This document shows positions 33,888-45,239 of a stretch of DNA of 64,000 nucleotides, piece after piece (the first letter of the stretch is position 1; every line of letters starts with the position of its first letter). Under the pieces are notes generated by a model. That model had not been told where the DNA came from. It ran no database searches and saw nothing but the letters and a program-made list of their open reading frames with translations. The translations under genes and the position numbers were made by a program. Source of the DNA: Leptogorgia sarmentosa (lineage: Eukaryota); assembly GCA_964658305.1 (NCBI GenBank), contig OZ210884.1, positions 4,340,001 through 4,404,000 on the forward strand, given 5' to 3'.

Positions 33888-36800
33888 TTGGTTTCATTCT
33901 GGAATATCCGGCTACGATGCCGAAGCTTTGCTTTTGACTAGAGGCACAGATGGAAGTTTTCTACTTCGACATAGTGCGAGTAGCCCTGGCGAATTCACTT
34001 TGTCCGCTAGGTGAGTTGGTTTGGTATATATATCAAAGTTCCTGATGTAAGCATAATTATACAAGTTTTGTATGTGTCATAATGATGGTTGGGTAGTTTA
34101 TAGAAACGTACCATTTATAATACGCGAATACGTCCTTTTTTCATGCTCTCTGACAGGCCACTGTCAGAATGGGAAGTGAAAATGAATCGGCATACTATTG
34201 GTAGAGGAGAATTTTTCTGTTGAAATCGTTGATTTTCAAACGTGACAGTAAAATTTTCATGATGAAAATTGCACTTCCGTCATTAAAATTGGAGCGGATG
34301 CGATGAATGCCATATAAATGTGTGATTTTTCTATTCAGCTATTATAAATTATTCTCCTTTCTCCGTAATATTCATCGTAACAAGATTGCTGATGTAACGA
34401 GGGGGCATTACTGAAAATATGCGCGAAGGATCGAGAAGACATCTGATATGATTTGGCTGATTTTAAGCCTATTAATATAGTGGGTAATAATACATATTTT
34501 ATTGGATTGGAAAATATCGAAATTCCTCACGATTCCCAGAAAATAGGTGCATCAAGTTAATGGCATATCTGGAATAATAAAGCATTTGGTTGGATAGATT
34601 TATATTATTACATGCGTGTATTACCAGAGGAATATATCTTTACGTACACATAGCTACATGGACACTTCAAATCATTCTTAATTATTCATGAATGGATTTT
34701 CAGTAAAAACATGTGCATGATTCCACAAGGCAATTCAGAAAATTTGCTTGCAATTTGAAAACCAGAGTTCGGTAAACTGTAATGCGCCGTTCAAAGGAGG
34801 GTGAGAATTGATGAGAGTTGAACAGTCATTGATGTTTGCGACTGATCGAACGCGCACTGTTCAAAGTTGACGAGAGTTGACGAGGTTTAGCGGTGAAAGG
34901 TGAGTGCGAATTCGAATTGTAACTCTCATCAAGTTTCATCAACGTATTCCCATTATCTATCATCAACTTTCATACACTTTCATACACTTTAATACACTTT
35001 AATACACTTTCATACACTTTCATCAACTTTCATCAACTTTCATCAACTCTCATCACCTCTCATGAACTTTTATCAACTTTCGTCAACTGTCATCAACTTT
35101 CAAAAACTTTCATCAACTTTCGTCAACTGTCATCAACTTTCATCAACTTTCATCAACTTTCATACACTTTCATACACTTTCATACACTTTCATCAACTTT
35201 CATCAACTGTCATCAACTTTCATCAACTTTCATCAACTTTCATCAACTTTCATCAACTTTCATCAACTTTCATCAACTTTCATACACTTTCATACACTTT
35301 CATCAACTTTCGTCAACTGTCATCAACTTTCATCAACTTTCATACACTTTCATACACTTTCATACACTTTCATCAACTTTCATCAACTTACATCAACTTT
35401 CATCAACTTTCATCAACTTTCATCAACCTTCATCAACTTTCATCAACTTTCATCAACTTTCATCAATTTTCATTAACTTTCATCAACTTTCATCAACTTT
35501 CATCAACTTTCATCAACTTTCATCAACTTTGATCAACTTTAATCAACAACTTTAATCAACTTTAATAAACTTTTATCAACTCTCATCCTCGTTCCAAGGG
35601 AATTTTAAGCAGAAAAATTAACAATCTGTCCTCTATCAGCATACAAATGTGTACTTAGTCAAATATAAGGACCGGCAATCTTTCCTAGAGATTGCAGCTC
35701 AGCAAATTTTCGTGCAGCCATCGTCCAGCCGTAGGATGGCTAGATTTCAATATCTGGCAAAAGACCAGACCTTAACGCTATTCATCAAATGTCGTTCTAA
35801 AATCTTTGTGCATTGCAGCATTAGATTGGAAAATTACATTGACGCAGTCCTTCTCAAATTCCTAGATGCGGTAACACAGTGTATCACCTTAGGATCGAGA
35901 GTGCGGGTGATAACAAGCATGAGATTTGCGATGGGCAGAGGTTTTCTACCGTTAACGAGCTGATCCAGTTTTATTTCGAGAAGAACGTGGACATTAGGAT
36001 AAAGGAAACAGATGTTGTTTTGAAATTGAAACATCCTTTGAGTTCCGCTCCGCCAACAAATGAAAGGTAGCTAAAAATCTTCTAATAGCTAAAGTTAATT
36101 TATTACAAGTAATCCAAAATTATAATTATGTACACACAAACTTGATGAAATTATTTTGTTGTTCATTGTTTTCAAATCTGGGCCACATAGTTATTAGAAT
36201 TATCCCGCTTAAAGCGAATTCAAATCTGTTTCAAAGTTCACTATATGCAAATATAGAAAACACATGTTATTTGCATACCTTATAGGGCCGGCTCATTCAT
36301 ACGAACGATTTCGCCGCGAATTCTAGGGCGATTTTCACGTTTTAACGGATGTGAACGAGTAAATCCGTCAGGAATGTTTTAGCGAGAAAGCACGCACTCA
36401 GGACATCCGTTATTACTCCATTTCTTTGCGTAGCAAATGCTGTGTCGTTATCTAAACGTTTTTCTCTTTACCAATTTAGATGGTTCCATGGTAATATTTC
36501 CAAGCGAAAAGCTGACAGTTTGCTATTGGAAGAAGGAGAAAATGGAAGTTTTCTTGTTTGTGTTTGTTGGACTGAGCCTGAGAATTATGTTCTAGCTGTA
36601 AGGTGAGTAGCTAAAAATTGTGACCTTTACTGTTTATTCTGAAGTAATGATAGTTTCCTGTGATCATTCTGACCAAGACTTAGCTATCTCATATTTTACA
36701 TAAACTTTTTTTACTTATTCGATAAAGTTATGCGACTTTTTACCGCCAGCCCCTGGTGGTTGTAGATTTTTTCGTACAAACTGCGCGTAATTTGCATGAA

Positions 36801-42800: not shown

Positions 42801-45239
42801 TGGGTAAGTATAAACTTCCAAAATAAATAAGGACTAGCAGATCCAGTGAAATTGAAAATTTGTGGGCTCGATTCTCATTACATGATTGCCCTCCTTTCCA
42901 CAGAAAGGGATTATTAACGGTCAAGATTGTCAAAAACGCATGAAATGACATTTGGAAAACACTAGACTTTAATACAGTAAGTTAGCAAACACGACGTGAC
43001 TGTCTAAGACGCCGTGAAAATAGCGTAAAAATGACGTGCTACATCCATAGACGACATTTTCACGACATCATGTCGTGTTTGCTAAATTTCGCTTATATTT
43101 CTCGGAGGAGGTCCCACAGAACACCAATCTGGGTTTCGAGTTCAGCACTGAAGAGCATTTTCACGATCCTGCCGCCGCCGTTTTTCAGTCCTTCTGAGTT
43201 AGTCAATATGTTGCAGAAATTCGTGGGTCTTCTTTCAACGCTCCGGTTTCCTTTTTAAAGGAAGGTGATATGAGTGGGTTAGAATAATTAATTTCAATAT
43301 GTGGTTAGTGCAGGTAGCGGATAACAACATTATAAGAAGCAGCAAAGGTTTTATATCAAATCACCACCGAAACGATACAAAAAAGTCGATGTTCAGTGCA
43401 ACGGGCCCGTTTTTTGTGCGACAACTTAAACTTACAAGCTAACTAACTGCCGACCTAAATTAGCCAAACTCGCTAAAATTATATGAACACTTGGGTGCAG
43501 GAAATTAAAAAAATTTTATGGACTTTCATAGAATATTCTTAATACAGGAAGCGATTGATTTCAGGTGCTTTGATTTAGAAAATTTTATTTCGTTGAGGGA
43601 TTCAAGATCAATGCATGTTTATTGTTTTCCTGCAAATGCGTCATAGTTCGTCAGCATATTGCAAAAGTATGAAAAGTGGTGATACATCTCTCAATACTTG
43701 CAGGTGATTCTCCATATCCAGGAAAGATTGGAAAAGATGTTCCAATGCTGCTTGAAACTGGCTATAGAATGCCCAAGCCAGAGCATGTGTCCGACAAAAT
43801 GTAAGGAGTGAAGTAGCTAAGTTGAAGAAAAATACAATCCTTGGACCAACGAAGTGCAGCGCGTATTAGCCTTAAAAGCTGGACCAGCAGCGTTATATTA
43901 CCTATCAGCCGTATCAGCTATTCTCGCTGAGGGAAAATCCTGTATTTCTTGCAATACACCAGTTTCACATCATCTGCATGCACGGGCAGTGGGCGATAAA
44001 TACAAGGTTGCATGCATGTTTTTACGAAGATATTCATGGTGAATGTTAGCCCGGTAAAATCCCCCACTTTTGATTCAAGTTGAATCGATCCGAAACGCAA
44101 CGATTGGGTAAATAGAATCGAGGCTGGTAAACTGTACGTTGATAACAGCTGTACGTTTCGTGATGTTTCAAATCACCTTTGTGCAATTGGGCTTAAACGT
44201 TCACCGAATTCCGAGATAACGTGTCAATGAAAGCACGTTTACGGTTGCATCTTTCATCGCCTTTTCAATATTTCTTTTGCGATGCCCCCCTCTTGACAGG
44301 TCTGAACTAGTAAATCAGTCACGAATGTTCAGGTGACTCAGGACTTTTGTTATTAATCCATTCATTCACATCGACGAAAAGGCGAAATCGCAGTACAATT
44401 TGCAATTGAGAACGGGCTTTTATCATATAAACAGCATTTGGCAGGTTTCTCTTTGCAATAAATATAATGCAAAATATTAGTTCCATTCAAGTTTCAATTT
44501 CATTATTTCAGTTATTCGATCATGCAAGAGTGTTGGAATGATGAACCATCAAAGAGGCCACAGTTTTCACGCATGGCCTCATTTTTTAAAGAGATGCTGG
44601 CTGGATCATCTAAAGTAAGCCGCCATAATTTCACTCCTCAATATCATGTATTCAAAAATGAGAAGAAAAATTGAAATTGGTGTGGAAATTTTGAAATTTG
44701 TTATATTTTCAAGCCTGGCTTGTATTTATAGAAACTTAGAAAATCAATTCGCTATATGCCTGTTTCTACGTAGGTCGCGATTGTTTTGATCTAGGGTTTA
44801 AAATCAGATTTCCGCGACTGTTAACCAGTCTTTTTTGCGAAATATTTTCGAAAATGAATCCCAATGAATCGGTAACAGGTCGATTATTCGAATTCAATGA
44901 TGAATAATCTGCTCGAGTTTGTTAACGTTCTTCGTGAAATCATTTCGTACCTTCGCCCGTGTTTCGATGTTTTACTAAAACGTTTCTGTAAGTCAGATTG
45001 ATCCAACCTTCTTCTAACTCCGCGTGATGATTAACACGTATCCAATAATTTTTTTATGCCTATCATGTTTTTGCGATTTTTTTCTGAAATTAGAGCGTTT
45101 TTTGTTTATGAAAGTCCGACAAGCTGAGATACACTATAACTTTCATTTTCTCATCATCTTCTCGATACTTTGTCTTTTTTAGGTTTATCTTGATATGAAC
45201 AAATTTGAAGAACATGAATACGTGAATTTTGATGATTGA
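33888..45239 (+). CDS. Non-receptor tyrosine kinase: SHP2/PTPN11-like tandem SH2 domains fused to an FGFR/RET-like kinase domain (~600 aa; start exon unresolved)
   Basis: Exons 33888-34010, 35866-36066, 36480-36602, 37098-37254, 38460-38552, (38837-38905), 39987-40242, 40929-41039, 41374-41561, 42036-42146, 42310-42380, 42763-42803, 43704-43800, 44512-44614, 45183-45239, phase-continuous. SH2s: [36 protein letters not shown]...YDLGGG...VETSG. Kinase: [56 protein letters not shown]...RP. Phase-2 start-exon candidates: ATG 32688 (ATGGCGAG|gt) or ATG 33797 (ATGAG|gt). Confidence 0.9.
34786..35595. repeat. Intronic element with a 10-bp minisatellite (CATCAACTTT/CATACACTTT)n, array ~34961-35580
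   Basis: ~60 tandem units. Left end carries inverted gatgagagttga copies and right end tcaactctcatcctcg, suggesting a MITE with an expanded internal array. Confidence 0.9.
37262..38129. mobile_element. AACACG/CGTGTT-rich non-autonomous element in a kinase intron
   Basis: Ends tagaaaaacaagcg / cgcctgtttttctagtg are inverted repeats. Interior is dense in aacacg/cgtgtt motifs in both orientations. Contains a nested MITE. Confidence 0.6.
37412..37612. mobile_element. PIF/Harbinger-type MITE nested in the previous element
   Basis: ~39-bp TIRs (aggcgccgttacacgatgcaatttttcttgcaacttgca, 3 mismatches). TTA TSD at 37409-37411 and 37613-37615. Confidence 0.85.
38190..38935. repeat. ~370-bp tandem duplication including the SH2-kinase linker exon
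   Basis: 38190-38580 and 38581-38935 are colinear (gaagtatgtata..aaatcgaccata..gattgatggcaagtcgac..gctagaataattaacg..ggtcaagagcgagcc..aaagaaccggaggtaac). Confidence 0.9.
39693..39941. mobile_element. hAT-type MITE (249 bp) in a kinase intron
   Basis: Imperfect TIRs CATTGGCGACGCCA / TGGTGCCGCCACTG. Perfect 8-bp TSD TCGATTGT at 39685-39692 and 39942-39949. Confidence 0.85.

Follow-up and report, generated by a model that had tools for sequence, protein, structure and literature searches.

The Leptogorgia sarmentosa locus encodes, as one spliced gene, a chimera in which an SHP2-type tandem SH2 head is joined to a receptor-type tyrosine kinase (Table 1). Its 16 exons (33797-45239, + strand) lie within the 64,000-nucleotide stretch of DNA that was analysed (the window) and make up a continuous reading frame of 601 aa, uninterrupted by stops. 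The phosphatase of one parent, and the ectodomain and membrane segment of the other, have all been lost in the chimera. The product would be a likely active cytoplasmic kinase that docks on phosphotyrosine sites via its N-SH2 domain alone, a reading to which we assign a probability of slightly under 0.6, as judged from the residues and motifs described below.

Gene structure and splice evidence

In contigs of three runs (X4, X5, and X6), splice joints connect the start exon to the tandem SH2 domains, these to the linker, and the linker to the kinase. Joints for all SH2 and linker exons, and for most kinase exons, are present in 3/3 spliced runs; the start-exon joint is present in 2/3 (X5 and X6), by which the first intron (33802-33887) is removed. 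Splice joints occur in neither of the two unspliced runs (0/2, including X1); no run is recorded as RNA, and the RNA nature of the spliced runs is deduced from the joints themselves. The two joins across which the preliminary description had connected the halves are present in X4, X5, and X6, and absent in X1: 37254^38460, with a short side of 71 letters, and 38552 or 38905^39987, where the short side is only 27 letters (less than the 31-letter bridging rule) because both linker copies end alike. The joint 38552^38837 has the same distribution, and leads into a second linker exon, which arose when about 390 bp were duplicated in tandem (the copies are 84% identical over 391 bp).

An in-frame TGA at 33734 lies upstream of the ATG (33797), within the covered 5' part, and the loose end of exon 33888..34010 joins the next exon in X5 and X6. 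At the other end of the gene, an X4 contig over 45183-45862 carries 201 more letters, roughly as many as the two preceding exons have together. The GC-AG intron at 41040-41373 is an addition to the earlier model, the quoted motifs of which were all recovered in place on the + strand.

No single contig of X4-X6 covers the SH2 domains through the kinase. Contigs break off where the linker exon is duplicated, as would be expected if the assembly were wrong here, or if the locus held the remains of two adjoining genes, with nothing but this repeated exon to link them. Such an explanation is extremely unlikely, given that neither a stop nor a terminal exon ends the head ahead of the kinase, that no alternative kinase first exon or loose end occurs among the splice rows listed, that the spliced and the unspliced runs differ in both samples and study, and that all joints are in frame. 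Contig depth is similar on either side of the seam (X5, 52/52; X6, 34-47/47; X4, 67/87).

Table 1. Features of the chimeric gene, in positions of the window.
Feature	Position	Strand	Evidence or remark
5' untranslated part of start exon	up to about 33726	+	contig coverage
Start exon, coding part (ATG + 2 nt)	33797..33801	+	joint 33801^33888 in X5, X6
N-SH2 first half, SHP2 residues 6-44	33888..34010	+	PDB best match SHP2; Pfam SH2
N-SH2 pocket Arg32 equivalent, intact	33967-33969	+	sequence
N-SH2 second half and inter-SH2 linker, SHP2 46-111	35866..36066	+	
C-SH2 first half, SHP2 112-151	36480..36602	+	splice joints in contigs
Arg138 equivalent, Cys	36559-36561	+	in C-SH2 first-half exon
C-SH2 second half, SHP2 167-214	37098..37254	+	joint 37254^38460, 3/3 spliced runs
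Linker exon, 31 aa, phase 0-0	38460..38552	+	opens with SHP2 post-SH2 residues
Copy of last 23 linker-exon codons, spliced in	38837..38905	+	joint 38552^38837, X4-X6
Ser/Thr-rich spacer and kinase N-lobe; first receptor-derived exon	39987..40242	+	
Gly loop; VAVK	40143-40160; 40221-40232	+	within exon 39987..40242
Kinase exon with alphaC Glu	40929..41039	+	GC-AG intron next
Kinase hinge and kinase insert	41374..41561	+	
Catalytic loop exon, one activation-loop Tyr	42036..42146	+	
HRDLAARN; DFG	42042-42065; 42102-42110	+	within exon 42036..42146
Kinase P+1 loop and APE	42310..42380	+	
Kinase alphaF exon	42763..42803	+	
Kinase C-lobe exon	43704..43800	+	
Kinase C-lobe end	44512..44614	+	joints absent among splice rows listed
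Tail exon, two tyrosines, stop	45183..45239	+	YLDM 45186-45197; YVNF 45219-45230
3' untranslated part	to about 45862	+	X4 contig covering 45183-45862

Ancestry of the two halves and position of the seam

An origin of the SH2 half from SHP2, as originally proposed, is borne out by PDB best matches, tree placement, and retained SHP-family intron positions. SHP2 is the best PDB match for 4/4 SH2 half-exons, in collinear order, and in a tree of 39 SH2 rows, which held no Syk sequence, the N-SH2 joins SHP N-SH2s and the C-SH2 joins SHP C-SH2s (96/100). Syk/ZAP70 chains are absent from all 44 PDB matches of the C-SH2 first half and all 58 of its second half, as well as from the best 60 of 167 (N-SH2 first half) and best 60 of 70 (N-SH2 second half). 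Like members of the SHP2/PTPN11 family (SHP1, SHP2, and Corkscrew), the chimera has a tandem SH2 head, collinear with residues 6-219, in which the tandem arrangement and a short SHP-type inter-SH2 linker are both kept. Introns at 45/46 and 110/111 appear to be common to the family and the chimera, exon 35866..36066 having the same limits as those deduced for SHP-family fragments, and the Gly at alphaA2 and Thr42 that are typical of the SHP2 N-SH2 are also present. The SH2 domains had been described as tracking SHP2 closely; the descent stands, but the closeness is overstated, with a median identity to the SHP family of 42-43% (vs. 56-65% between family members) and a degenerate C-SH2 pocket. 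Both domains are on long branches (1.18 and 0.91). Where the SHP family has a phosphatase domain, the chimera has a tyrosine kinase, and tblastn searches with five SHP C-terminal parts gave no match in the window at E up to 1.

The kinase half is of receptor type, in agreement with the preliminary description: it is sister to a Dendronephthya gigantea receptor (XP_028410744.1; P0004) with support of 100/99, and the family introns and tail are kept. Identity to P0004 is 70% over 311 aa, on a branch shorter than that of P0004 itself (0.20 vs. 0.30), and the kinase is nested among anthozoan receptor kinases in a tree without a Syk row. PDB matches of P0004, as a stand-in for the kinase, are RET and FGFR, with no Syk/ZAP70 chain in the best 60 of 692; the catalytic-loop exon gave no informative PDB match. 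Kinase introns share their positions with those of stony-coral receptor loci, and the tail YxN is present in the last 25 residues of 126/126 near-full-length relatives. The chimera shares with anthozoan Cad96Ca/RET-like receptors the insert after the Gly loop, the kinase insert, and the two-tyrosine tail; these receptors have an ectodomain and a membrane segment, whereas the chimera has the SH2 head instead and no recognisable juxtamembrane region. No ectodomain remnant was found in the window by tblastn, and the reported lack of a transmembrane segment holds (highest 19-residue hydrophobic mean 1.36, vs. 3.2 in the closest receptor). All kinase catalytic motifs are present (Gly loop, VAVK Lys, alphaC Glu, [14 protein letters not shown]), and the product is likely to be an active cytoplasmic tyrosine kinase. 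With its halves joined by splicing, its SH2 domains SHP-type, and its kinase within the anthozoan receptors (in trees that were without Syk), the locus represents one gene that is neither Syk nor Shark, as had been claimed.

The phase-0 intron between the SH2 head and the linker had been put forward as the seam of exon shuffling, and this part of the proposal is not upheld. The next exon opens with residues matching SHP2 215-219, and one SHP-family model (P0173) runs off at the same spot as if into an intron; by sequence, this intron is inherited from SHP2, and the linker exon is likely a decayed form of the next SHP2 exon. Compared whole with SHP2 215-252 (target segments pattern-cut), the linker exon shows significant homology, being equalled by 0-1/2000 shuffles; without its first five residues it is equalled by 240/2000, which is not significant. 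The seam lies further downstream, likely in the intron before 39987; the intron that two stony-coral receptor loci carry at this place is in phase 1 rather than phase 0. For none of five receptors does the juxtamembrane region match the pre-kinase spacer (51-734 of 1000 shuffles). Inherited introns are present on both sides, and the fusion therefore arose by DNA-level rearrangement, not as a retrocopy.

Sequence searches found no second protein in which SHP-type SH2 domains are combined with a kinase. A metagenome scan for the second SH2 exon gave 350 pattern matches, of which 0 were confirmed, and one with the kinase-insert alignment gave 39 loci (many of them short or chance matches), 0 of which matched the SH2 head at E up to 1; a word-index search for the second SH2 exon yielded seven candidates, none significant, which is weak evidence. 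The literature search gave no description of this architecture, although an SH2 survey of 21 species may bear on its novelty.

Phosphotyrosine pockets and predicted mode of action

The N-SH2 keeps R32, S34, S36, T42, and H53 in its sequence, with K55 replaced by Arg; its +1/+3/+5 groove is still hydrophobic, and positions 89/91 are still basic (residue roles and binding consensus from PMC8007070). Near-invariant groove positions are altered (T52, I54, L65, L88, and E90), and the specificity of the N-SH2 may thus differ from that of SHP2, or be fading. Of the phosphatase-facing positions listed, 8/14 differ from the commonest residue of the family. In the C-SH2 pocket, R138 and S140 are replaced by Cys and H169 by Tyr, at positions that relatives conserve in 23/23, 23/23, and 22/23 cases, respectively; a Lys-Arg has been gained at 119-120, close to the pocket. 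That the N-SH2 pocket persists at 43% identity, where phosphatase-facing positions have changed and the C-SH2 pocket is gone, suggests selection on N-SH2 binding. The C-SH2 likely serves as a spacer, or in some way that does not depend on phosphotyrosine.

Two-site reading of ITIM motifs, which had been carried over from SHP2, is unlikely because the C-SH2 has lost its phosphotyrosine arginine. Engagement of two-site ITIM/BTAM motifs of inhibitory receptors by both SH2 domains would turn inhibitory input into activating output, and the retained tandem arrangement and inter-SH2 linker, the gained Lys-Arg, and an engineered precedent at PD-1 (10.1101/2025.10.01.679874) would be compatible with it. 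We consider it highly unlikely in view of the loss of Arg138, Ser140, and His169, the severe attenuation of C-SH2 binding by R138Q in human SHP2 (PMC10369915), and the mostly positive role of SHP2 in receptor-kinase/ERK signalling (PMC2747914; PMC5589908).

Alternatively, the head might be a decaying passenger of a rearrangement that gave the kinase a new promoter and start exons, in which case the product would be an untargeted soluble kinase. On this view both SH2 domains would be losing function. The C-SH2 pocket is gone, and the branches of both domains are long where that of the kinase is short; a recent in-frame linker duplication has been tolerated, and among three exon differences that were checked, one affects the C-SH2 and one the spacer at the amino-acid level, with a silent third in the kinase. 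This explanation is unlikely, albeit far from negligible: the frame is open through every head exon, the N-SH2, at 43% identity, retains every one of its five phosphate-binding residues and is still basic at position 55, and its pocket is intact where 8/14 phosphatase-facing positions have changed and the C-SH2 pocket has disappeared.

The first tail tyrosine agrees with the SHP2 N-SH2 consensus at 4/6 positions in five coral receptors and at 3/6 in the chimera, both being counts without a null model. We take the receptor tail site to resemble the PLC-gamma site of FGFR1/RET, so that it need not be an SHP2 site. Action of the N-SH2 in cis on the chimera's own YLDM, where it would set kinase activity by clamping the protein in the manner of Src or by latching a dimer, would be favoured by the retention of both tail tyrosines, by the +1, +2, and +3 matches of Y585 (consensus from PMC8007070), and by a linker of ~90 aa that is long and of low complexity. 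It is nevertheless distinctly unlikely, since the chimera took over its tail from the receptor family, and its site there, with Lys at +5, agrees less well with the consensus than those of the receptors.

For docking through the N-SH2 in trans, the preferred reading, the following sequence of events is envisaged. Having no membrane anchor, the kinase would reach the membrane only once a receptor has been phosphorylated, its N-SH2 binding pY-hydrophobic-acidic-hydrophobic sites of the kind read by SHP2; the best candidate sites would be the first tail tyrosines of the parent receptor family (YLDL and YVNL). Clustering at receptor tails could lead to autophosphorylation of the chimera, which would add phosphotyrosine where SHP2 would remove it, and displace SHP2. 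Its YxN tail, a docking motif for Grb2-type adaptors, might then be offered to such adaptors, and the net effect would be to amplify or prolong receptor signalling at a second stage. As a whole, a natural eraser-to-writer swap with parent-receptor docking, SHP2 displacement, and a positive feedback loop, making an independent Syk-like kinase, is put forward tentatively, as a possibility clearly short of even odds. The inversion of signal sign that had been envisaged is not sustained: SHP2 mainly promotes receptor-kinase/ERK signalling, and therefore the kinase swap reverses the chemistry without necessarily reversing what the pathway delivers.

Comparison with natural and engineered tandem-SH2 kinases

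The pairing of SH2 domains with kinase writers or phosphatase erasers has been treated as old and stable (PMC4342544), and SHP domain structure is described as without significant change over the span studied (PMC3296744). The weight of the present case, a gene known from one species and from its sequence, is limited; it is one in which both parents are still identifiable, introns mark the fusion history, and post-fusion remodelling is visible (one pocket kept, one lost, and the phosphatase-facing surface drifting). It offers a testable example of a cytoplasmic SH2 kinase arising from a receptor.

Syk/ZAP70 and Shark are tandem-SH2 cytoplasmic tyrosine kinases, with the same SH2-SH2-linker-kinase layout without a membrane segment as the chimera, and are recruited via phosphotyrosine, as is predicted for the chimera too. 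Both halves of the chimera have an origin separate from that of these kinases, and only one of its SH2 domains looks functional; the ankyrin repeats that Shark carries between its SH2 domains are absent. Compared with the SHP family, the chimera has lost the C-SH2 pocket, and the phosphatase-facing surface of its N-SH2 is partly changed.

A further parallel is synthetic. When a SHP2-SH2-based binder is fused to the kinase of ZAP70, the engineered protein moves to phosphorylated PD-1 and increases killing by T cells (10.1101/2025.10.01.679874); therefore an SH2-kinase design can work. This NT7-ZAP70 fusion (Sphyder) likewise uses a SHP2-derived SH2 module to take a tyrosine kinase to a SHP2 docking site, but is composed of a C-SH2, a nanobody, and the ZAP70 kinase, whereas the natural gene retains the N-SH2 and has a receptor-type kinase. 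The chimera is a natural counterpart to engineered SHP2-SH2-kinase fusions; if the eraser-to-writer swap is true, evolution would here have produced a twin of the modules engineered for SH2-kinase rewiring in T cells.

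Structure and transcription of the chimeric gene

Joined by coordinates, the 16 exons of the chimera encode a protein of 601 aa with a single stop at its end (578 aa if the duplicated linker exon is skipped), and the introns are GT-AG throughout, with the sole exception of a GC-AG intron (41040-41373). Of four head exons, Pfam assigns three to SH2; of seven kinase exons submitted, it assigns six to tyrosine kinase. No membrane segment is predicted, since 19-residue hydropathy peaks at 1.36. The preliminary description lacked the start exon (ATG 33797, then an 86-nt intron); an in-frame stop at 33734, within the contig-covered 5' stretch, means that the transcript has no coding sequence upstream of this ATG.

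Six sequencing runs match the window stretch (0/6 recorded as RNA), among them three samples of one study (X4, X5, and X6), whose contigs carry at least 11 splice joints at modelled sites between the second SH2 exon and the C-lobe; we infer that these three are RNA. Contigs of run X1 read through the chimera introns, with no joints among the matches listed. The start-exon joint occurs in X5 and X6, together with a loose end at 34010 continuing into the next exon; X2 contigs have neither. The continuous SH2-linker-kinase message envisaged earlier is supported by joints at the modelled places in X4, X5, and X6. The short side measures 71 letters at the SH2-to-linker joint and 27 at the linker-to-kinase joint; the latter, like the contig breaks at the linker, arises because two linker copies share the same ending, so that no single record covers the whole exon chain. 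Such breaks might suggest that SH2 and kinase parts lie on separate transcripts, which is highly improbable given the joints; contig depth is comparable left and right of the seam, and the evidence for one linked transcript is strong. Depth at the duplicated-linker joint relative to the next joint differs across runs (71/87, 40/52, and 15/47), and may reflect optional inclusion of that exon.

The gene array upstream has no Pfam match and weak PHROGs matches; by eye, one of its exons may correspond to auto-cleavage domains, after which come a coiled coil and a membrane segment.

Features of the window
Feature	Position	Strand	Remarks
Short frame	455-757	+	Eight cysteines and a hydrophobic stretch of signal type; defensin-like on visual inspection; no match in Pfam
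STEAP-like gene	4909-6938		F420 oxidoreductase domain and ferric reductase membrane part (Pfam)
Multi-exon gene array	~9500-32830		Three or more partly duplicated copies in tandem; last copy spliced, ending just upstream of chimera
Chimeric gene	33797-45239	+	16 exons
10-bp satellite	34921-35587		66 copies, within the N-SH2-splitting intron
Tandem duplication, ~390 bp	38192-38934		Linker exon copied with new acceptor
Transposase-like frames	51559-52713	-	Tc1/IS630 type by eye; between 1-kb direct repeats (50236-51251, 52943-53958)
Family-92 glycosyltransferase gene	54900-57492, 60816-63404		Two tandem copies, 92% identical

Ancestry of head and kinase

Each of the four SH2 half-exons has human SHP2 as its best PDB match, in collinear order (residues 6-44, 50-110, 112-151, and 167-213), and no Syk/ZAP70 chains are among the matches listed. 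In a 39-row SH2 tree (without a Syk row, five incomplete family rows left out), the domains fall, on long branches, into the SHP N-SH2 and SHP C-SH2 groups (96/100); together these results uphold the SHP2-type assignment. When the second SH2 exon was scanned against all 1.84 billion representatives, 82 matches emerged: a single fragment with the window's own sequence, and 81 proteins sharing 29-48% identity. Domains were scanned in 26 of them (every one of at least 213 aa, plus one); a phosphatase domain is present in 18, SH2 only in eight, and a kinase in none, and the named proteins are PTPN11 or Corkscrew. Among 62 short SHP-family fragments (the window's own included), 45 end at residues 110-112 and 38 start at 40-47; these limits coincide with those of the second SH2 exon here and can be read as introns that the chimera shares with the family. 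Single SHP-family models run off at 151/152 (P0214), at 214/215 (P0173), and after a segment ending at ~252 (P0226). Judged from these sequences, the head is descended from SHP2.

The kinase-insert exon retrieved 60 proteins, every named one anthozoan and none with SH2. The closest relative, at 70% identity over 311 aa, comes from the soft coral Dendronephthya gigantea: XP_028410744.1, a 'Cad96Ca-like' receptor with a transmembrane segment. A search started from this receptor left 1759 proteins above the cut-off; the top-ranking 120 of these include one SH2 carrier, a catshark model (38% identity) with a layout unrelated to the chimera. In a kinase tree of 52 rows (51 picked from 131 candidates), chimera and D. 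gigantea receptor are sisters (100/99). Their neighbors (90/88) are stony-coral receptors whose ectodomains are of the Eph ligand-binding and FN3 kinds, and insect Cad96Ca branches off outside this group. An octocoral is the likely host, judging by this single tree. The receptor, as stand-in, matches RET and then FGFR in the PDB, the top row being an EGFR construct whose score covers two stretches; the proposed FGFR/RET-like, receptor-type character agrees with these matches and the tree. On this phylogeny, the kinase is receptor-derived. Its introns lie at the same places as in three stony-coral loci, so it arrived as genomic DNA.

Many stony-coral 'ephrin type-A receptor-like' proteins (e.g., P0015, P0025-P0029, P0038, P0046, and P0052; loci L001, L004, and L024) combine an Eph ligand-binding domain and FN3 repeats with a Cad96Ca/RET-like kinase, apparently a second shuffled architecture of this kinase family (in a tree without a true Eph kinase). 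Another transmembrane receptor of this subfamily, sharing 60% identity with the chimera's kinase, is encoded by an intron-free contig (L016:3-1280); its frame is broken close to the C-lobe, and other residues stand in for both tail tyrosines.

The phase-0 SH2-linker intron had been proposed as a shuffling join. The linker exon opens with the five residues that come after C-SH2 in SHP2 (the remainder is weakly similar), which, with the P0173 run-off, indicates that this intron was inherited from SHP2; the seam probably falls within the intron before 39987. A ready-made phase match for fusion is not supported, since the intron ahead of the N-lobe exon is phase 1 in two stony-coral receptor loci vs. 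phase 0 in the chimera.

Remodelling and predicted mode of action

SH2 residues were compared with 21-23 SHP relatives. Phosphate is held in SHP2 N-SH2 by R32, S34, S36, T42, H53, and K55 (PMC8007070), of which the chimera retains the first five and has Arg for K55. Its N-SH2 groove is hydrophobic still, yet several residues depart from near-invariant family ones. At the positions we take to face the SHP2 phosphatase (58-63, 69, 71-76, and 79), 58, 59, 62, 63, 69, 72, 74, and 75 are changed, and 60, 61, 71, 73, 76, and 79 unchanged. That the head is decaying and the kinase untargeted would fit the groove changes, and is unlikely in view of the retained phosphate contacts. In C-SH2, R138 and S140 are replaced by Cys and H169 by Tyr; human R138Q severely attenuates C-SH2 binding (PMC10369915). 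Two-site ITIM reading with sign inversion, suggested by the tandem SH2 layout, is therefore improbable. In the kinase no catalytic motif is missing; the activation loop has one tyrosine, and the two in the tail are retained. The working form is most likely a cytoplasmic kinase with one reader domain.

Ligands favored by the N-SH2 of SHP2 are hydrophobic at -2, +1, +3, and +5 and acidic at +2 and +4; the best natural one is Gab1 pY627 (PMC8007070). Scored without a null model, the first tail tyrosine fits this consensus at 4/6 positions in five coral receptors and at 3/6 in the chimera, which favors docking in trans; a cis clamp on the chimera's own tail, partly matching as it is, appears quite unlikely. 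We put at about 0.57 the probability that the chimera would dock in trans on activated parent-family receptors, then autophosphorylate, add phosphotyrosine locally, and compete with SHP2. Inverted signal sign, the earlier proposal, loses ground: published accounts have SHP2 keeping ERK signalling going below receptor kinases (PMC2747914; PMC5589908), and Hydra Shp2 is expressed together with FGF receptors (PMC7260276), so that amplification is at least as likely as inversion.

Relation to known systems

The chimera is well supported as a gene; its ancestry is surprising, it is known so far from one species, and its role is predicted from sequence. A literature search at the level of listings, which did not extend to one SH2 survey or to the greater part of subscription papers, showed no natural protein joining SHP2 SH2 domains to a receptor kinase, and the available text of a holozoan tyrosine kinome survey mentions SH2 for Src-module families alone (PMC8662651). 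Lacking a phosphatase, the chimera is no SHP2 member, and lacking a membrane segment, no receptor kinase. It resembles Syk/ZAP70 in outline of working but differs in the ancestry of both SH2s and kinase, in keeping with the earlier view that it is not Syk-type (SH2 tree without a Syk row). We rate it an independently assembled SH2 kinase, whose nearest precedent, from the available account, is the engineered NT7-ZAP70 (bioRxiv 10.1101/2025.10.01.679874), which is synthetic, whereas the chimera is natural.
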